Origin: Thermoplasmata archaeon
GTDB lineage: Archaea; Thermoplasmatota; SW-10-69-26; JACQPN01; JAJPHT01
Reading direction: 5' to 3'
DNA: 64,000 nt
Assembly: GCA_034667685.1 (NCBI GenBank)
Contig: JAXDQU010000106.1
Coordinates: 1 to 64,000 of the forward strand
Shown: positions 4,615 through 60,849 of the stretch, piece after piece
How positions within the stretch are numbered: position 1 is the first letter of the stretch
Layout of the letters: the number at the start of each line of letters is the position of its first letter
The notes under the pieces: generated by a model
What the model was told of the DNA's origin: nothing
The model's input: only the letters and a program-made list of their open reading frames with translations
Database searches by the model: none
Translations under genes and position numbers: made by a program

Positions 4615-5220
4615 ATGTCCCCCGGGTCCAGCCACCTTGCGGTCGGGAGCCTCTTCGTCCTCGCGGGCGCGGGCAGCCTGGTCGCGGGGCTGGTGCACGC
4701 ATCGTGGCTGCCGGCGTCCTTCCTGACGCTCACGGGCAGCTCGCTGGCGTGCATCGTGGGCTTCGTGCTGCTCCTGGGCGGGCTGCTCATGACGCTCTTC
4801 GCCTTCCAGCGCCACGAGCCGCCGGCCGACGTCGTGCCCGCCGAGGTGGCGTTCGCCTCGCGGATGGTCGTCGCCGACCCGCACGCCGCCGAGCCCGTGC
4901 CGACCCCGGCCCCCCGCCCCCGCGCCGCGCCCGCGCGCGCCCCCGCGCCGGCCCCCGCGCGCGCCAGCGCCCCGCGCCGGCCGCCCGCGGGCGCGACGGC
5001 TGCCGCCGCCTCCGCGGCGCCCGCCCCCGCCGTGGCCCCGACGCCCGGCCTGGACGAGCAGATCCGCGAGCTGACGCGCCGGATCAGCAAGGCGGGCGTC
5101 ATGCTCGCGACGGGCCAGATCAGCCAGCAGGGGTACGCGTCCTACGTCGACGACCTGAAGCGGCAGCGCGGCGCGCTGGAGGCCAAGCGCGTCGAGCAGC
5201 AGATGGGCACCGAGCTCTGA
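4615..5220 (+). CDS. Hypothetical membrane protein (2 TM helices, Pro/Ala linker, short C-terminal helical domain)
   Basis: ATG at 4615 downstream of TATA-like CTATATA at 4581; typical codon usage. Confidence 0.6.
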   Translation: MSPGSSHLAVGSLFVLAGAGSLVAGLVHASWLPASFLTLTGSSLACIVGFVLLLGGLLMTLFAFQRHEPPADVVPAEVAFASRMVVADPHAAEPVPTPAPRPRAAPARAPAPAPARASAPRRPPAGATAAAASAAPAPAVAPTPGLDEQIRELTRRISKAGVMLATGQISQQGYASYVDDLKRQRGALEAKRVEQQMGTEL

Positions 5221-5270
5221 GCATTCCTTTTTATCTGAGCGTGGCTTCCGCCGCCTCAGGTGGAACCCCG

Positions 5271-6551
5271 GTGAAGCTGTACGAATACCAGGGGCGGCAG
5301 GTGTTCGAGCGGTTCGGCATCCCGACCCCCTCGGGCGTCGTCGTCTCCTCCATGGCCGACCTGGAGAAGGTGCGCGGCCAGCTGAAGTACCCGCTCGTGA
5401 TCAAGGCGCAGGTCCTCGTGGGCGGGCGCGGCAAGGCGGGCGGCATCCAGTTCGCCAACAGCTGGGACGAGGCCGTCGCCAAGACGCGCCAGGTCCTGGG
5501 CATGGACATCAAGGGGCTCACCGTCGAGAAGGTCTTCCTCGTGGAGAAGCTCGACTTCGCCAAGGAGATCTACGCCTCCGTCTCGCTCGACCGCGCGACG
5601 CGCAGCATGCTCATCCTCTTCAGCGAGGAGGGCGGCGTCGAGATCGAGAGCGTGCCCGACGAGAAGATCAAGCGCGTGCACGTGCACCCCGTCACCGGCT
5701 TCCAGCCCTACCACGCGCGCGCCCTCTTCCAGGGCAGCAAGCTCACCGGCGACGTGCAGAAGCAGGTCAGCGCGATCCTCGGCAAGCTCGTCGCCGCTTT
5801 CCGCGGCATGGACGCCGAGCTGCTCGAGATCAACCCGCTCGCCGTCACGCCGCAGGGCAAGGTCCTCGCCGCCGACGCGAAGGTCATCCTCGACGACGAC
5901 GCCGCCTGGCGCCACACCGACTTCGAGGAGCCCAAGGAGGACAAGACGCCCCTCGAGTGGGAGGCCGAGGAGAAGGGCATCGCCTTCATCCAGCTCGAAG
6001 GCAAGATCGGCATCATCGCCAACGGCGCCGGCCTCACGATGGCGACGCTCGACGCGATCAAGCACTACGGGGGCGAGCCGGGCATCTTCCTGGACCTCGG
6101 CGGCACCGACAACCCCGAGAAGGTGCGCGAGTGCGTGCTGCTCATGAAGAAGGCCGAGCCCACCGTCATGATGCTCAACCTCTTCGGCGGCATCACCAAG
6201 AGCGACACCGTCGCCAAGGGCCTGAAGATGGTCCTCGACCAGGAGAAGATCCCCTTCCCCATCGTGACGCGCATCAAGGGCGTCAACGAGGAGGAGGCGC
6301 GCGCCATCCTGAAGGAGGCCGGCCTCTACACGACCAACACGCTCCAGGAGGCGGCGAAGCTCACCGTCGAGATCGAGAAGCGCGTGGTGGGCAACGCGCC
6401 CCTCCCGCCGCTCTCGTACAAGGTCGAGGTGCCGGAGGCCAAGATGCCCGCCCGGCGCGCGAAGCGCGCCGCGCCCAAGAAATCCAAGTCCAAGCCCGCG
6501 AAGCGGGCACCCCAGAAGAAGCGCGCGAAGCGCGCGAAAGGAGGCCGCTAA
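5271..6551 (+). CDS. sucC: Succinyl-CoA synthetase beta subunit with Lys/Arg-rich C-terminal extension
   Basis: KLYEYQG, KAQVLVGGRGKAGG, EINPL, NGAGLTMATLD, NLFGGI motifs; GTG start after TTTTTATC promoter-like box. Confidence 0.93.
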   Translation: MKLYEYQGRQVFERFGIPTPSGVVVSSMADLEKVRGQLKYPLVIKAQVLVGGRGKAGGIQFANSWDEAVAKTRQVLGMDIKGLTVEKVFLVEKLDFAKEIYASVSLDRATRSMLILFSEEGGVEIESVPDEKIKRVHVHPVTGFQPYHARALFQGSKLTGDVQKQVSAILGKLVAAFRGMDAELLEINPLAVTPQGKVLAADAKVILDDDAAWRHTDFEEPKEDKTPLEWEAEEKGIAFIQLEGKIGIIANGAGLTMATLDAIKHYGGEPGIFLDLGGTDNPEKVRECVLLMKKAEPTVMMLNLFGGITKSDTVAKGLKMVLDQEKIPFPIVTRIKGVNEEEARAILKEAGLYTTNTLQEAAKLTVEIEKRVVGNAPLPPLSYKVEVPEAKMPARRAKRAAPKKSKSKPAKRAPQKKRAKRAKGGR

Positions 6552-9516: not shown

Positions 9517-11544
9517 TCATGAGGTTTGGGCAGGCAGGCTGAAGGCGAAGGTGGCGCCGCGGCCGGGGCCGTCGCTGCGGCAGCCGATGTGGCCGCCGTG
9601 CGACTCGACGATCCCGCGGGAGACGTAGAGCCCGAGGCCGGCGCCGGAGCGCGTCTTCTCCATCTTGTCGTGGACCTGGCTGAAGGGCTGGAAGAGGCGC
9701 GCGACGTCCTCCGCGCGCAGCCCCGCGCCGGTGTCGATGACCTCGACGGAGGCGCCCGGGTGGAGGTCGCGCACGCGGACGACGACCTCGCCCCCGCGCG
9801 GCGTGAACTTCAGCGCGTTGCGGATGAGGTTGAAGAGGACCTGCGTGACGCGCGGCGCGTCCGCGGGCACGACGACGGGATCGCCCTCCACGCGCAGGAC
9901 GATGCCCTCCTGCGCCGCGGCCTCGGCGAAGGACTCGACCGCCTCGGCGGCGAGCTTGCGCATGTCGGTGGGCTCGGGCGCGATGTCGAGGCGGCCCGAT
10001 TGCACGCGCGCCGAGTCGAGCACGTCGCGCAGCAGGCGGCCGAGCTGGTCGACGTTGCGCACGAGCACGGTGACGCCGTTGCGCTGGCGCTCGGTGAGCG
10101 GGCCCAGCTTCTCGTTGCCGAGCAGGTGCGCCTGGAGCTTGATGGGGGTGAGCGGCGTGCCAAGCTCGTGCGCGGCGTTGTTGATGAACTGCGTCTTGAG
10201 GCGGTCCATCTCGCGCAGGCGCTCGTTGACGAGCTGCAATTCGCGCTGCTCCTGGAGGGCGCGCTCGGCGCGGCGCCGCTCGGTCACGTCGCGGAAGCTC
10301 CAGACGCGGCCGATGACGTCGTCGCCCGAACGCTGCGGCTGCGAGTAGCGCTCGAAGATGCGCCCGTCGCGGAACGCCAGCTCGTCGAAGCTCGTCGACT
10401 GCGCGTCGTCGTAGAGCTCCGCGACCTTGCTCACGAACCCGTCGGGGTCCTGGAGCTGCTCCTTGACGAAGGTGAGCGCGAGCTTGTCGTCGCCCTCGTG
10501 GAGCAGCGACATCGGGACGCCCCACATCTCGACGAACTTCTTGTTGAAGCCCGCGATGCGGCCGGAGCGGTCGACGACGAGGATGCCGTCGGTCGTGGAC
10601 TCCAGCGTGGCGGCGAGCGTCGAGACCGCGCGGCGCAGCGCCGCTTCCGCGAGCTTGCGCTCGGTGACGTCGCGCAGCGTCATCACGTGGCCGATCACGA
10701 CGTCGTTGTTGCGGATCGGCGTGCGCTCGACCTCGACGGAGAGGCTCGTGCCGTCCTTGCGCGCGAGCTCGACGCCCTCCTCGGCGCGCAGGCCCCAGGT
10801 GGCGGAGCCCTCGCGCGTCGCGGCGTGGACGAACGCGTCGATGGGCTTGCCCAGGAGCGCGCTCACCTCGTGCTGCGTCATGGTGGCCGCGGCCGGGTTG
10901 GCGAAGGTGATCTTGCCCCCGAGGTCGAGGCCCACGATGCCCTCGCCGGCGCTGTCGAGCACGAGCGCGGTGCGGCGGCGCGCGGTCTCGGCGACCTTCC
11001 AGCCCATCAGCAGCGCGACGCTCTCGCCCAGGACGAGCGTGGCGTGGATCATCGCCCACTGCCAGGGGTGCGCGTAGGCGTCCGCGTGGTTGTAGACGAG
11101 CGTGGGGAAGATCGTGCCCACGATGCCGTGGTCGAGCGCGACGTAGCCCACCGCGAGGAGGAACGGGATCCAGTCCATGTAGAGGGCGATGACGGCGAGC
11201 ACGACGAAGAAGTGGAAGTGCGCCTCGATGTAGCCGCCGCTGAACTGCACGATGACGGCGCTGGCGGTCACGAGGGCCAGGGCCGCGACGGCGCCGCGGA
11301 AGCGACGCTTGGTGCCCGGGAACGCCGCGATCAGGCCGATGAGGCCGATCAGCGCGCCTTCGGCCAGGCTCTGCGGGGCGGAGAAGCCGCGGTAGAGGCC
11401 GAAGATGGCGACGCCCACCGCGTGGGCAAAGACGACCCACAGGATCGCGCGGTGGCGCGCGCCCCACTCGTCCTCGGGAAGCTCGCGTCCTTCCGGCAGG
11501 GCGCGGCGGAGGCCGACCCAGGCGCGCGCGGTGAGGCTCGTCAC
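9517..11544 (-). CDS. Membrane sensor histidine kinase with two PAS domains
   Basis: EAHFHFF membrane domain, PAS (FANPAA; GFNKKF), H-box AHELGTPL, NLIRNALKF, DTGAG, GAGLGL. Confidence 0.93.
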   Translation of the reverse strand: MTSLTARAWVGLRRALPEGRELPEDEWGARHRAILWVVFAHAVGVAIFGLYRGFSAPQSLAEGALIGLIGLIAAFPGTKRRFRGAVAALALVTASAVIVQFSGGYIEAHFHFFVVLAVIALYMDWIPFLLAVGYVALDHGIVGTIFPTLVYNHADAYAHPWQWAMIHATLVLGESVALLMGWKVAETARRRTALVLDSAGEGIVGLDLGGKITFANPAAATMTQHEVSALLGKPIDAFVHAATREGSATWGLRAEEGVELARKDGTSLSVEVERTPIRNNDVVIGHVMTLRDVTERKLAEAALRRAVSTLAATLESTTDGILVVDRSGRIAGFNKKFVEMWGVPMSLLHEGDDKLALTFVKEQLQDPDGFVSKVAELYDDAQSTSFDELAFRDGRIFERYSQPQRSGDDVIGRVWSFRDVTERRRAERALQEQRELQLVNERLREMDRLKTQFINNAAHELGTPLTPIKLQAHLLGNEKLGPLTERQRNGVTVLVRNVDQLGRLLRDVLDSARVQSGRLDIAPEPTDMRKLAAEAVESFAEAAAQEGIVLRVEGDPVVVPADAPRVTQVLFNLIRNALKFTPRGGEVVVRVRDLHPGASVEVIDTGAGLRAEDVARLFQPFSQVHDKMEKTRSGAGLGLYVSRGIVESHGGHIGCRSDGPGRGATFAFSLPAQTS

Positions 11545-56291: not shown

Positions 56292-56374
56292 GCGCGCGCA
56301 CGGCCGGCGGGCACACAAAGGCGTTGTGGTGCTGTCGCAACAATCCTCCACAACGATGATCGGCGCGCGCCCCG

Positions 56375-56740
56375 ATGTCCGAGGCGGTGTCGGTTGTGCG
56401 GACCCCTCTCTTCCTCGGCATGCTCCTCGTGACGTCCCTCGTCGCCCTCGCGCCCTCGGGCAACGCCGCCGCGAACGGCTGCGTCGACGCGGGCAGCGGC
56501 ATCACCGCGTGCGGCGCGGCCGTCGCGGTCGGGTGCGGCGTCAGCACGGGTGTGGGCGCGGCGACCGGCATCGTCGCGTGGACGCTCGTGAGCAGCACCG
56601 AATCGGGCTCGAAGTCGTTCAGCCTGCGCGCGCCCGCCTTCGCCGGCGCCGCCGACGCGCCGTGCACCACGGCCTCGTGCACGACGGGCTTCCTCTACGC
56701 CAACGGCGTGCTTGTCTCCGAGAGCCAGACCGTGTGCTGA
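56375..56740 (+). CDS. Small secreted Cys-containing protein
   Basis: Signal peptide; 6 Cys; followed by hairpin GGCTCAGA..TCTGAGCC. Confidence 0.55.
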   Translation: MSEAVSVVRTPLFLGMLLVTSLVALAPSGNAAANGCVDAGSGITACGAAVAVGCGVSTGVGAATGIVAWTLVSSTESGSKSFSLRAPAFAGAADAPCTTASCTTGFLYANGVLVSESQTVC

Positions 56741-56853
56741 GGCTCAGAGCCGCTTCTGAGCCGCGGAGAGAAGGCGAAGCGTCCTCGCACCCAGGGGCCG
56801 CGCCCCCTTGACAAGGTACGCGGGCGGTGTTCACGCGGCGGAGCCCCCTGACC

Positions 56854-57678
56854 TCACGCGATGGGGTGCGAACTGACGTCGTTGACGGCCTTCTTGAGCC
56901 GCTTCAGGTCGAGTCTCTTCCTTGCGTGCGCATCGCGCTGCCAGGCGTCCAACGAATCGATGACCGTGTGCGCCTCGACGAGGTAGCATTCCGCGGCCTT
57001 CCACGTCAGGAGCTGATCCCCCTCCCTCCACGTGTGGACGAGCCAGATGCCGTTCTCGTCGTAATCGCGCGCCCACATCGAGTGCCCGCCGCCCGAGTTG
57101 GGCAGCCAGTCGCCGATCGCGGGCTGCCCGACGGGAATGTCCCAGGCCTTTGGGGGCGAGATGGACTCGAACGCCTTCGGGAGCGCAAGGCACACCGCGA
57201 TCCCATGGGCGCCGCTCGAGGCGATCGCGCGGCGAACCTCCTGCTGGTCGAGGTGGTTGACCCTGACGTACGCGTCGATGGTCAGCGCGCGTCCGCTGGC
57301 GTCGCGGATCGACAGCTCGGGGCGGCGCCAACGGTCGAGCGCGTCGGTCTCGTACGCGCCCTCGTCGTTGCCCCCGTAGAGGTCCGCGCACATCTTCTCG
57401 AACACGCGAAGCGGCTCGTCCTCGGCAATCTGCGGGACGTGCCCCGTCTCGAGCCGCTCCATGCGCAGCATGGCGACGGCCTGCTTCGCGATCGTGCAAT
57501 CGTTGTGCTCTGTGTTGCCGTAGGCATGCCTGGCGAAAGGCGCCCTGCGGTTCCAGAAGCCCGTCGCCTTGGGAGGCTTCACGGTCCCCCGCGCGAAGGC
57601 TCCGAACATCAGGGCTTTCGCCGACGTCTTCGGGGGCAGGCATCCGGTTCTCCTGTTCGCGAGTGGTGTTCGCATCAT
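56854..57678 (-). CDS. Papain-like (C1-related) cysteine peptidase
   Basis: GN...NDCTIA (Cys), GGHSM (His), VHTW; no signal peptide; ATGA overlap with upstream gene. Confidence 0.7.
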   Translation of the reverse strand: MMRTPLANRRTGCLPPKTSAKALMFGAFARGTVKPPKATGFWNRRAPFARHAYGNTEHNDCTIAKQAVAMLRMERLETGHVPQIAEDEPLRVFEKMCADLYGGNDEGAYETDALDRWRRPELSIRDASGRALTIDAYVRVNHLDQQEVRRAIASSGAHGIAVCLALPKAFESISPPKAWDIPVGQPAIGDWLPNSGGGHSMWARDYDENGIWLVHTWREGDQLLTWKAAECYLVEAHTVIDSLDAWQRDAHARKRLDLKRLKKAVNDVSSHPIA

Positions 57679-58400
57679 GGTTCTTCCTTCAGCGTGATCT
57701 CGGGTCGAGCGGGCGCGCGCGGTGGCGGCGCAACGGGCCCTGGGACGCGGAGCGCGCCGCGCGTGGCGTCTTGCCAAGAACGCAGCACGTCGGGCGCGAT
57801 GGGCTCGGGCAGGATGGGCGCGAGGTCCTTCGCGAGCCGCGCGGGATCCGCGGCGAGGAAACCGGCAGGGTCCTTGATCGCGGTCTTTGCGATCGCTTCC
57901 AGGAGCGCCGGAGGGATCGTCGGTAGCGCGAGGATCGCCGCCTTGTCGAGCGCGCGATCGAGGCTCGCGCCAAGCCTGAGGTTCGCGAGCGCTGCGCGCC
58001 CCGCGGCGGTCTGCGAGATGCGCATCAGGTCGTCCACCGAGAAGACGCGATGCGCGGCAAGCTTCTCAATCGCCTGATGCGGGAGCCCAAGCGTCGAGAG
58101 CGGCTGCGGCGCGCTCGGAAGCGGCGCGCGTGGCGCGTCTTGCGAGGGCCGCACGCGCAGGCGAAGCGTCGCGCCGCCCGGCGCCGCGTCGTTCGAGAGG
58201 CTCACGAGGACTTGGCCCAGCTCGTCGAGACGCGCGCGGACGGGCAGCGTCAACTCCAGGTCGTCCAGGATGTAACAGCCTGACGCTCTCGGATGCCGCG
58301 CCAGCTCCTCGTGGATGCCCATCGCGGCGGAGGCGACGGTTTCGCCCAGCTCGTGCAGGACGACCTCGGAAGGGAGCGACGAGAGAGGCTCAACCGGCAC
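57675..58400 (-). CDS. Hypothetical protein: helix + beta-hairpin N-domain (Trypco/DUF2589-like) and two HhH-like repeats (DUF4332-like)
   Basis: LHELGETVASAA..EL, LDDLELTLPV; LGL...IEKLAAHRVFSVDDL and LPTI....EAIAKTAIKDPAGF; GGAGGTGA RBS before GTG 58400. Confidence 0.55.
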   Translation of the reverse strand: MPVEPLSSLPSEVVLHELGETVASAAMGIHEELARHPRASGCYILDDLELTLPVRARLDELGQVLVSLSNDAAPGGATLRLRVRPSQDAPRAPLPSAPQPLSTLGLPHQAIEKLAAHRVFSVDDLMRISQTAAGRAALANLRLGASLDRALDKAAILALPTIPPALLEAIAKTAIKDPAGFLAADPARLAKDLAPILPEPIAPDVLRSWQDATRGALRVPGPVAPPPRAPARPEITLKEEP

Positions 58401-58482
58401 GCCCGTCACCTCCCGACGCCAGAAAGGCAAGGCCGGAATGAGACGACCGCGGCTGCGCGAGAACCGCCGCCATCGTCGCGCC

Positions 58483-59625
58483 TCAGATGTTGATCCCGAC
58501 GTCGGCGTTCACGTAGCCGAAGGACGCGTGGACGACCGTCGCGGCGGGAGGCTTCGTCTTGTCGAATTGCGCTCCTTCGCGGGACACCGTGATGACCACC
58601 TTGCCCGCGCTGTCCGTCTTGTCGGTTGTGGACTTGTACGTCCAGCTCAGGAAGGGGTCGCTCAGCGTGATGTCGATGGACTTGCCCGCGAGCGCCGTGC
58701 TGTCCACCTTCAGGAGCGTGAGGGTGACGTCCACGGCGCGCCCCGTGGGGTCGGGGGGCGACCCTCCAGGGGGCGTAGCGGGGACCACGTCCACGCGGGG
58801 TCCCGCGGTCAGCTTCAGCGAGGGGCCCTTCTGCACGATGACCGGCTTAGGAATCTGCATGTCGGGGCGCGGCTCCAACGTCGCGTCGAGATGCATGGAG
58901 CCCGCGGCCTGATCCGTGGACGTGCTCGAATCGCCGGATGCCGCGTAGGAGCCGAAGCTGTAACCGATGCTCCCCGACGCGCCCACGCCGTGCAGGCGGC
59001 TGTACGTGGCGGCCGCGCCCACCGAGAAGCCTTGGCTTTTCCCTTGGACGTTGAACCCGTTGGCGGTGTTGAACTCCGAGACCTTCATGTCGGCCGAGAT
59101 GTGGACGGACTTCCACAAGTAGGCGGGCGGCGTGATGTAGTTGATCAGCGGGAGCTTCATCACAACGGGGTGTCCGTCCACCAGCTGGCCATCGTCGTCG
59201 AGCTTCTGCTCGAAGACCGCGATGACGTCGATCATCTGCTGCGAGAGCGCCGAGGCCGTGACGACGAGGCCTGCGTCGAGCTGGGCCTGCGCTTCCGCGA
59301 CGGCATCGCCAACCTTGCTCACGAGCAGACCGAACGCCGGTCCCCCTCGGGCGAGCTCGTCGGTGATGTCAGCATCCGGAGCGACCACGGGCGTCACGCC
59401 CATCTTCGCTTCGCCGACGTGCAATGCCGTGGGGTGCCCGGTCCCGCCTGCCGTGAGGGCCCCCTGCCGGAGATCGCGAGCGTCCTGCTGCGCGAGGCGG
59501 ATGGCCCGGAGCTGCGCGGCCTGGGCGGCGTCGATGGCTTCCTGAACGTCCTTGGAGATGGGCGCCTTTCGCTGGCTGGCGTTCGACGATTCGTGCTTGC
59601 TCTTCTTGACGTGCGTGAGTGCCAC
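58483..59625 (-). CDS. DUF2589-like protein with long Gly/Ser amphipathic beta-hairpin and C-terminal Ig-like domain
   Basis: FGLLVSKVGDAVAEAQAQLD, KLPLINYI.P, S/G-rich alternating strands, TTDKTDSAGKV Ig-like end; GGAGGT RBS before GTG 59625. Confidence 0.6.
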   Translation of the reverse strand: MALTHVKKSKHESSNASQRKAPISKDVQEAIDAAQAAQLRAIRLAQQDARDLRQGALTAGGTGHPTALHVGEAKMGVTPVVAPDADITDELARGGPAFGLLVSKVGDAVAEAQAQLDAGLVVTASALSQQMIDVIAVFEQKLDDDGQLVDGHPVVMKLPLINYITPPAYLWKSVHISADMKVSEFNTANGFNVQGKSQGFSVGAAATYSRLHGVGASGSIGYSFGSYAASGDSSTSTDQAAGSMHLDATLEPRPDMQIPKPVIVQKGPSLKLTAGPRVDVVPATPPGGSPPDPTGRAVDVTLTLLKVDSTALAGKSIDITLSDPFLSWTYKSTTDKTDSAGKVVITVSREGAQFDKTKPPAATVVHASFGYVNADVGINI

Positions 59626-59811
59626 GTGATCAGACCTCCGGGCTCGCGAGGAGAAAGGATGTGATACCATTCCTCGCCGCGAGTCCGGTATGCGTGGACC
59701 TATGGGCTCCTCGGGTTTACGCCTTGCAGCGTCCATACGGTTGCTATAGGCGTTCCGAGCGGCAACGCCGACCATGCAAGGCCGAAAGCAGGGTCTCCGC
59801 GCGAAGGCGCG

Positions 59812-60849
59812 TTACAAGCGCTTCTGCGCGACGAAAAGCTCCGCACCCAGCACGTTGGACCCGGCCGCGCCGCGGATCGTGTTGGACCCGCTCGCGATCC
59901 AGCGCAGGTCTAGCACGTTGTCGGGCCGGATGCGCCCCACGCTCACGGCCATGCCCTTCTCCGCATACACGTCCTTGCGCGGCTGCGGCCGGTCGGGCTC
60001 GCTGCGCACGTGGAGCGGGCGCAGCGGCGCGCTGGGCAGCTTGAGCTTCTGCGGCGCGCCCTGCCACGTCGCCATGACCTCCGCGGCTTCCTCGGGTGTG
60101 GGCTTGCTGCGGAACTGCGCGGTGATCGCGACGGTGTGCCCCTCCTGCACGGGGACGCGGACGCACGTCGCGCTCACGCCGATCTCGGCGAGCTTGACGC
60201 CCTCCGGCGCGACGGCGCCGAGGAACTTGCGCGTCTCCTTCTCCATCTTCTCTTCTTCGCCGCCGATGTGCGGGATCACGTTGTTCATGATCGCCAGCGA
60301 CGGAACGCCAGGATAACCGGCGCCGCTGACGGCCTGGTACGTCGCGAAGAAGACCTTCTCCAGGCCGAACACGTCGTGAAGCGGCTTGAGGCTCATCAGC
60401 GCGGTGATGGTGCTGCAGTTGCCGTTGGTGACGATCTTGCCGCGCGTCTTCTGGCGTTCGACCAGCGCGAGGTGGTCCGGGTTGACCTCGGGCAGGAGGA
60501 GCGGCACGTCGGCGTCCCAGCGGTGGTCGCGGGCGTTGCTGAAGACGTGGATCCCGCGCTCGGCGAGCGAGGTCTCGATCGGCCCTGCCTTGCCTCCGGG
60601 AATGGCGCTGAAGACGAGGTCGACGTCGAGGTCGTCCGCGGGCGTCTTGACGCGCATGTCGCGCACCGATGCCGGCATCGGATCGTCGACGACCCACGTG
60701 GCGGCGTCCTTGTAGAGCTTGCCGGCGCTCCGCTCGGAGGCGACGAGCTCGGTGACGCGGAACCAGGGGTGGTTGTCGAGGAGCATGGCGAATCGCTGGC
60801 CCACCATGCCGGTGGCGCCGAGGATGCCGACTTTCACGGTCTGGGTCAT
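59812..60849 (-). CDS. asd: Aspartate-semialdehyde dehydrogenase (archaeal/fungal type)
   Basis: [42 protein letters not shown]. Confidence 0.95.

Follow-up and report, generated by a model that had tools for sequence, protein, structure and literature searches.

A three-gene block on the minus strand of a contig from a Thermoplasmata archaeon (JAXDQU010000106.1, assembly GCA_034667685.1) was analyzed within a window of 64,000 nucleotides, namely positions 1 to 64,000 of that contig, and its genes were denoted g1, g2, and g3. The families of g1 and g2 were observed to travel together in metagenomic loci with an SLT lytic transglycosylase lacking a signal peptide, often with a small open reading frame (ORF), and with a peptidase whose type varies from lineage to lineage. 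On the basis of this comparative analysis, the archaeal block is tentatively read as a horizontally acquired, trimmed form of a bacterial cassette in which a protease would license membrane-attacking effectors, a reading that we place slightly short of an even chance. The block consists of the following elements.

58483..59625, minus strand: g1, 380 amino acids (aa); variable N-terminal region, conserved helix-plus-beta domain, and Big_1 Ig-like tail
57675..58400, minus strand: g2, 241 aa; N-terminal helix-plus-beta module, Pro-rich linker, and HhH-type C-terminal domain
56854..57678, minus strand: g3, 274 aa; predicted xylellain-like papain-family (C1A) cysteine peptidase with an ATG start
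59634..59639, minus strand: Shine-Dalgarno-like GGAGGT, 8 nt ahead of the g1 GTG start at 59625
58406..58413, minus strand: Shine-Dalgarno-like GGAGGTGA, 5 nt ahead of the g2 GTG start at 58400
57675..57678, minus strand: ATGA overlap of the g2 stop and g3 start, read from the sequence

A preliminary description, made from the letters of this stretch, had claimed three co-oriented genes with Shine-Dalgarno sites and an ATGA overlap; the ORF reading confirmed the three minus-strand frames, GGAGGT before g1, GGAGGTGA before g2, and the shared stop and start of g2 and g3. No meaningful match to Pfam, NCBIfam, PADLOC, or PHROGs was obtained for any of the three proteins. Among 5.8 billion clusters, other homologous clusters at E<=1e-3 numbered 20 for g1, 26 for g2, and 67 for g3, and all of these relatives are unnamed or labeled 'hypothetical'.

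Metagenomic cassettes of the g1 and g2 families

A metagenome scan with the g1 profile gave 28 loci, whose neighboring genes were read by tblastn and Pfam. An SLT domain (PF01464, E 1e-11 to 1e-15) was located directly after g1 in 21 of the 25 loci that extend at least 160 bp downstream, the others being L010, L016, L022, and L025. These lytic transglycosylases are 214–399 aa long, start with MALTEFHG..., and contain no signal peptide. A g2 relative was detected downstream of g1 in 11 of the 13 loci with at least 1.3 kb of downstream sequence, which shows that the two families co-occur. No g2 relative follows in L028 or in L021, whose sequence is cut within a long TTR-repeat protein. A small ORF is present between SLT and g2 in six loci; its product of 105–124 aa (about 110) comprises a helix (EFLAG..GLVDAQ..LD) and strands and ends in a tail that is charged and Pro-rich.

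The peptidases of these loci were found to differ in type. A 342-aa trypsin-like protein with NNHV and GDSGS motifs follows g2 in five closely related loci (L011, L013, L014, L018, and L024), while a canonical Peptidase_C1 (E 1.1e-15) occupies this position in L008. In L028 (7464–10760), a subtilase with a C-terminal HHH_5 domain stands in place of g2 and is followed by another, diverged g1-like gene at 10080–10760; the hhalign comparison of the HhH tail of this subtilase with g2 gave E 0.2. Another subtilase, with a signal-like N-terminus, lies upstream of g1 in L029. Furthermore, two of the 30 distant g1-domain proteins scanned (P0156 and P0195) are fusions in which a subtilase without a signal peptide precedes a complete g1-like protein. 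In at least five lineages the unit includes a peptidase, either as a separate gene or as a fusion, and three catalytic types (trypsin-like, C1, and subtilase) are represented. A 19-residue hydrophobicity profile never exceeded 1.62 in g1, g2, g3, SLT, the trypsin-like protein, the C1 peptidase of L008, or the small ORFs, and the cassette proteins are predicted from their sequences to have neither signal peptide nor membrane helix.

The locus L010, which carries the small ORF and g2 without SLT, is probably archaeal, because its flank encodes DUF123 and a PAN-like ATPase that is 44% identical over 374 aa to that of the window archaeon. Other genes were recorded upstream of two of the cassettes: a BTAD-AAA_16 STAND-type protein in both L011 (43–4685) and L014 (2–4605), accompanied by a Ser/Thr kinase in L014 and by a caspase-like C14 peptidase with a DUF4257 protein in L011.

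Architecture of the g1, g2, and g3 proteins

The model of g3 constructed with AlphaFold (AF2) from a 40-sequence alignment was of high quality, with a predicted local distance difference test score (pLDDT) of 93.7 and a predicted template modeling score of 0.91. A Foldseek search with this model returned 226 PDB matches at E<=0.001, the best being xylellain (3ois_A, E 7.4e-9), followed by papain and cathepsins. The structural alignment by VIA-align gave Z 21.4 with a root-mean-square deviation (rmsd) of 2.6 over 219 residues and 16% identity for xylellain, and Z 15–18 for cathepsins and papain. The modeled g3 thus adopts the papain fold, which is defined by an L domain with a central helix and an R domain beta barrel. 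The following positions were assigned on it.

57496..57498, minus strand: codon of Cys61, the predicted nucleophile, which starts helix 61–78; invariant in 40/40 sequences
57082..57084, minus strand: codon of His199 (GGH motif), which opens strand 197–206; invariant in 40/40
57514..57516, minus strand: codon of Asn55, six residues ahead of the catalytic Cys; invariant in 40/40
57574..57678, minus strand: residues 1–35, a conserved, extended segment at the N-terminus, superposing on parts of the propeptide in papain-family zymogens

In the model, the central helix begins with Cys61 and the facing strand with His199, as in the papain family. Papain itself uses Gln19 in the oxyanion hole and Asn175 in the triad. 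Asn55 of g3 presumably takes the position of Gln19; Trp217 is invariant in all 40 sequences, and the residue ahead of T-W (His215) is His in 33 of them and varied in the others. The Cys/His motifs and the missing signal peptide that had been noticed in the letters were upheld by the invariance of Cys61 and His199 and by an N-terminus that is not hydrophobic, and the Cys-His site is predicted to be assembled in this confident model. On sequence profiles, no Pfam family, including Peptidase_C1 (PF00112), matched it at E<=1, the PDB profile search gave chance matches only, and the profile comparison with the C1 peptidase of L008 (E 0.029) was confined to the Cys helix. The match of GvpA to the g3 tail (E 0.0078) reached 16 bits, the cut-off being 151, and was set aside as a chance match.

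The N-terminal segment of g3 carries a conserved LGRLP...ALMF motif. In the VIA-align superpositions, zymogens align from residue 1–3 of the g3 model and mature enzymes only from residue 20–35, which indicates that this segment behaves like the enzyme-bound part of a propeptide; it may block the cleft. The gene product is thus predicted to be a papain-fold cysteine peptidase that is intracellular, has its Cys-His pair intact, and begins with a propeptide-like segment.

Members of the g3 family were also found apart from the cassette. One stands alone in an Eisenbacteria genome, without g1 or g2, and five are in IMG/VR viral contigs (L043–L047) at 28–49% identity, four of them at 44–49%. The viral matches lie at about 5001–5816 of each contig and at varied positions relative to other genes, for instance with terminase and portal genes on either side in L043. 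Of these five copies, three match phrog_19005, a family of unknown function. A distant relative adjoins an amidase gene in phage MW202816. In the phylogenetic tree, the window g3 falls into a clade of 30 rows (support 98/95) that includes the Eisenbacteria sequence, and a separate supported clade holds three of the viral sequences. The branch of the window g3 is long, 0.99 as compared with a median of 0.41.

The AF2 model of g1 was of mixed quality (mean pLDDT 63.4), exhibiting a helix at residues 95–129 and strands up to residue 180. Its parts are as follows.

58822..59376, minus strand: conserved domain, residues 84–268 (185 residues); helix 95–129 followed by beta strands
59356..59373, minus strand: A-D-I-T-D-E motif, residues 85–90; each residue present in 16–21 of 21 sequences
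58900..59085, minus strand: Gly/Ser-rich stretch, residues 181–242; pLDDT about 31, strands 197–207 and 215–225
58486..58824, minus strand: Big_1 (invasin/intimin-type) Ig-like domain, residues 268–380; pLDDT 84–94

The ADITDE motif is located at the border between the poorly modeled N-terminal region (residues 52–91, pLDDT below 50) and the conserved domain, and is a candidate processing site. The Gly/Ser-rich stretch may form a long beta hairpin, as modeled at low confidence. The tail was identified as a Big_1 Ig-like domain: it aligned with invasin 1cwv_A at Z 10.5 (rmsd 2.5 over 88 residues) and with intimin at Z 9.3, and Pfam Big_1 (PF02369) was detected in 14 of 21 family members with a best E of 1.8e-6, the window copy itself giving no match. 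The order of parts expected for g1, i.e. helix, beta strands, Gly/Ser stretch, and Ig-like tail, was hence recovered.

A profile of the g1 domain alone (A4, 21 sequences) matched 212 representatives at E<=1e-3 and 153 at 1e-10 among 1.84 billion, so the family is real but rare. In the ESM Atlas, the nearest clusters to g1 residues 80–270 were DUF2589 (three top matches, score 0.88; TM 0.59/0.55). The Pfam DUF2589 model (PF11655) matched neither g1 nor any of the 30 distant family members scanned, and 'DUF2589-like' is therefore only a lead. Foldseek and VIA-align with the g1 model matched the Ig tail and found nothing for the N-terminal domain, which is too poorly modeled for a new-fold call; gasdermin was absent among the listed matches of this model, in which that domain is poorly modeled. 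The PDB sequence searches with profiles A1 and A2 gave chance matches only.

The g2 protein was divided into three parts.

58146..58379, minus strand: N-terminal module, residues 8–85; conserved helix EVxLHELGE... and strands ending in RLRxxP
58086..58145, minus strand: Pro-rich linker, residues 86–105; near-invariant Q-P-L at 58098–58106
57756..58085, minus strand: C-terminal DUF4332/HhH-type domain, residues about 106–215; Pfam matches in relatives

In the linker, Q99 and L101 are conserved in 26 of 27 sequences and P100 in 23, and this linker is a candidate cleavage region. The HhH-like C-terminus that had been suggested for g2 was supported by its relatives, of which 18/27 matched DUF4332 (PF14229), 13/27 Cdd1, and 7/27 HHH_5; the window copy matched none of them at E<=1. 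By Pfam, six of the 27 members have a CarboxypepD_reg-type (transthyretin-like) N-terminal domain ahead of the helix-plus-beta module. One or more domains of this kind were likewise observed at the N-terminus of the relatives P0091, P0093–P0096, P0100, P0102, P0103, and P0115, and of those encoded at L016:3500–4519 and L023:3007–5133. Pepco (PF24393) gave a weak match in two of the 27 members, below the cut-off (best E 0.029), and the ESM Atlas held no usable match to g2 residues 1–100.

Proposed acquisition by the archaeon, proposed mechanism, and rival explanations

The block was compared with the closest same-genus genome, G003, by blastn and tblastn. The stretch lacking a counterpart there and the remaining ORF that it contains are as follows.

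56332..59798, no strand assigned: stretch without counterpart in G003, holding g1–g3 and the ORF at 56375–56740
56375..56740, plus strand: small ORF convergent with g3, 121 aa, Cys- and Gly-rich, with a hydrophobic N-terminus

The gap between asd and the BNR gene measures 588 bp in G003 versus 3.47 kb in the window, in agreement with the insertion just downstream of asd that had been claimed, and the flanking proteins are 92% (aspartate kinase), 89% (asd), and 88% (BNR) identical between the two genomes. At the position of the ORF 56375–56740, G003 has a different small secreted-looking ORF. The neighborhood of the block consists of housekeeping genes and secreted-protein genes, the latter being the BNR gene and this ORF. 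The g1 profile found no other genome among 40 relatives, except for one marginal Ig-domain match, and the g1 domain profile matched only the window's own genome among 401 genomes of the phylum. Neither direct repeats nor an integrase nor a terminator pattern was found at the insertion ends.

The arrangement was also recovered from an independent soil run, X3, whose contigs span asd–g1 (59139–60269, 16 differences) and g3 to its downstream region (56617–57046, 6 differences). They represent a strain variant of about 98.5% identity and the same gene order; since both junctions are bridged, the arrangement is no assembly artefact. No RNA dataset was present among the listed holders of the stretch. 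The GC content at third codon positions (GC3) was 0.89, 0.83, and 0.89 for g1, g2, and g3, as compared with 0.93 for asd, 0.97 for aspartate kinase, and 0.96 for the BNR gene, so the codon bias is slightly weaker than that of the flanks, as had been described. Relatives of the SLT, small-ORF, and trypsin-like genes of the cassette were absent from the whole, 99%-complete genome. The block is thus an insertion, quite possibly acquired horizontally as a trimmed version of the bacterial cassette, a reading that we place at just under even.

The mechanism proposed on this reading follows the logic demonstrated for Pepco and EACC1 and the association of Trypco proteins with trypsin. The g3 peptidase would be held latent, with its N-terminal segment occupying the cleft in the manner of zymogens. 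After activation, it would cleave g1, g2, or both at conserved motifs of disordered segments, namely ADITDE ahead of the g1 domain and QPL in the Pro-rich linker of g2, and the freed helix-plus-beta modules would oligomerize and breach the membrane. In bacteria, such a breach would let the cytoplasmic SLT reach the cell wall and cause lysis according to the holin-endolysin logic. In the archaeon, which we take to have no peptidoglycan, the absent SLT gene would be dispensable. The HhH domain of g2 may serve docking or sensing; the preliminary description had further supposed that g1 and g2 would co-assemble into a beta barrel or filament and perhaps sense nucleic acid through this domain. The purpose of the whole would most likely be abortive infection or another programmed cell death. 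The ATGA coupling of g2 and g3 is in line with this scheme, as are the charged, Pro-rich tails of the small ORF and the g2 linker, which resemble the tail at which Pepco is cleaved. It is a bolder proposal, and on balance an unlikely one, that g1, g2, and the small ORF are undescribed protease-licensed membrane-breaching effectors, that in soil bacteria they form, with the cytoplasmic, signal-less SLT, a holin-endolysin-like suicide device, and that the archaeon captured this device across domains, dropped SLT, and rewired it to a xylellain-like zymogen. The outcome would be a pore-forming cell-death module that is gated by a protease and works in an archaeon.

Several observations weigh against the reading as a protease-licensed effector cassette. 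The family labels given in the preliminary description (DUF2589-like and Trypco) were not confirmed, as the Pfam models of DUF2589, Pepco, Trypco1, and Trypco2 miss g1 and g2 at E<=10. Specifically, Pepco (PF24393), Trypco1, and Trypco2 (PF19493, PF19631) gave nothing at E<=1 against the two proteins and nothing at E<=10 in six frames, and DUF2589 gave no match to either at E<=10. At the sequence level, no homology of g1 or g2 to any tested pore former was shown. The similar module supposed to be shared by g1 and g2 was not substantiated either, since their profile-profile comparison gave a non-significant E 0.35 with the 18-column helix alone aligned. The small ORF compares weakly with both the g1 domain (E 0.0059) and g2 (E 0.027). 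In the Gly/Ser stretch of g1, where the pLDDT is about 31, the amphipathic beta periodicity and hydrophobic moment are moderate and not decisive. No sensor gene (STAND/Avs) was found in the window, and PADLOC reported no defense-system match for g1–g3. Several loci are close kin, which reduces the independent g1+g2 lineages from eleven to about seven, and no peptidase adjoins g1, the small ORF, and g2 in L006 and L010. L016 has no SLT and is apparently bacterial, with a HisKA_3 histidine kinase as a neighbor, so SLT loss is not confined to archaea. The peptidase link that had been postulated stands for the g1 and g2 families, which occur with trypsin-like, C1, and subtilase enzymes across lineages and with two fusions among 30 proteins scanned; it does not hold for the g3 family itself, which was never seen with g1 or g2 elsewhere, being alone in the Eisenbacteria locus and the five viral contigs.

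The own genome of the archaeon encodes a tandem Trypco2 (PF19631, 26.3 bits, above the cut-off) at G000:C28:8775–9155 on the minus strand (L050), a small ORF between two glutamine-amidotransferase-like ORFs. In profile comparisons this protein gave E 0.27 and 0.14 without significant alignment, a further observation against the effector reading. No member of Pepco, Trypco, or DUF2589 was found in two bacterial genomes. The complex prediction for full-length g1+g2 (alignments A1 and A3) gave a score of 0.00 and a mark of 0.32, which is no evidence either way. As in Pepco/Trypco modules, the genes are encoded next to a serine or cysteine protease: g3 overlaps g2, and trypsin-like, C1, and S8 enzymes are located beside the genes in other lineages.

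Four other explanations were weighed. The cassette could assemble an envelope or surface structure and be unrelated to conflict or cell death: g1 would be a structural or adhesive subunit, SLT would open the bacterial wall for it, and subunit maturation would fall to the peptidase. In favor of this, Big_1 is a typical domain of surface proteins of the invasin/intimin type, space for trans-envelope machines is commonly made by SLT enzymes, the window neighbors include the secreted-protein genes noted above, and the L029 subtilase has its signal-like N-terminus. However, g1, g2, SLT, and the cassette peptidases have no signal peptide or membrane helix, the cassettes contain no secretion-system or sortase-type gene, and the peptidase family varies by lineage, as would be expected of effector licensing more than of an enzyme dedicated to maturation; we regard such a structure as improbable. 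We give the same low credence to g3 as an unrelated passenger, with g1 and g2 working without proteolysis, for instance as a stress-induced membrane- or DNA-associated complex. This would explain the solitary g3 relatives in Eisenbacteria and phage contigs and the peptidase-free loci L006 and L010, but it is opposed by the ATGA coupling of g2 and g3 and by the peptidases located in or fused to the cassette in at least four other lineages.

That the block is a non-functional remnant, a partial bacterial cassette without SLT and the small ORF whose genes are drifting, appears slightly less probable still. Its occurrence in one of 401 genomes, the two missing genes, and the long g3 branch point in this direction, whereas the three frames are intact with family-invariant residues kept, a GC3 of 0.83–0.89 near that of the host suggests long residence, and the strain variant in the independent soil run keeps both junctions. 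Least probable by a wide gap is a phage-derived lysis or accessory module. It would account for the g3 relatives in five IMG/VR contigs, for the distant one beside the amidase gene of MW202816, and for the resemblance of an SLT plus a membrane lesion to holin-endolysin pairs. On the other hand, the searches of viral contigs and plasmids did not find g1, and those of plasmids found neither g2 nor the small ORF; no flanking phage genes, integrase, or repeats were found; and the window g3 clades with cellular sequences, apart from the clade with three viral ones.

Comparison with known systems

The release of death effectors by proteases, as with gasdermins, Pepco, and EACC1, has only recently been established as a main logic of prokaryotic immunity, and the effectors described so far are bacterial, small, and located beside sensor-fused proteases. 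If the reading as a protease-licensed effector cassette is true, it would add two or three new effector families that are unannotated wherever they are found, and a signal-less lytic transglycosylase as a new partner, which suggests a two-step kill by membrane breach and then wall cutting. It would also represent a natural experiment, the module having entered an archaeon and shed precisely its wall-specific part. A testable substrate hypothesis is provided for an orphan papain-family branch that is also present in phages. The cassette does not correspond to a named system, as had been stated: PADLOC has no match, and no description was found in the literature on DUF2589, DUF4332, Trypco/Pepco, and archaeal pore-forming defense, where the supplements of Kaur et al. 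and Evans et al. could list the families.

Among known proteins, xylellain, a cysteine protease of Xylella fastidiosa (PDB 3OIS), is the best structural match to g3, including the N-terminal segment, which in xylellain presumably covers the active site. Unlike xylellain, g3 belongs to its own sequence family, with Asn in place of Gln six residues ahead of the Cys, and His in place of Asn before T-W in 33/40 sequences. For g1 residues 80–270, the nearest family by Atlas features and predicted structure is the uncharacterized DUF2589 (PF11655), whose Pfam model misses g1.

In bacterial gasdermin-protease modules, an effector whose gasdermin fold carries an inhibitory C-terminal peptide is freed by the cut of a neighboring protease and then permeabilizes the membrane. 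The EACC1-caspase pair likewise frees a latent effector by one cut from a neighboring protease, followed by membrane permeabilization (Evans et al. 2025, bioRxiv 10.1101/2025.11.14.688446). The proposed scheme resembles both, although the g1 and g2 sequences are unrelated to EACC1 and gasdermin.

Pepco is depicted in that preprint as a small single domain of about 117 aa that forms a 9–10-mer beta barrel and is cut in a charged, Pro-rich C-terminal tail, a protease logic experimentally supported as for EACC1 (Evans et al. 2025); the association of Trypco proteins with trypsin is stated by Kaur et al. (2020, PMC7159879). Pepco (Trypco1/Trypco2) modules share with the present cassette non-enzymatic helix-plus-beta proteins beside serine or cysteine proteases of varying family, a charged, Pro-rich segment after the beta module, at the place where Pepco is cut, and an intracellular location of all components. 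They differ in that g1 (380 aa) and g2 (241 aa) are multi-domain proteins, as compared with 117 aa for Pepco, and in that the window protease lacks a fused STAND/Avs sensor. In addition, g1 and g2 have no Pfam Pepco/Trypco match, and the bacterial g1/g2 cassettes add the SLT lytic transglycosylase.

The last comparison concerns the wall-cutting partner. Unlike holin-endolysin cassettes, the present one has no holin-type membrane helices or phage context, includes a protease, and in its archaeal copy carries no muralytic gene. Phage holin-endolysin cassettes encode a muralytic enzyme without an export signal beside membrane-breaching proteins, and the bacterial g1/g2 cassette has the corresponding arrangement, a signal-less SLT beside proteins that could breach the membrane.

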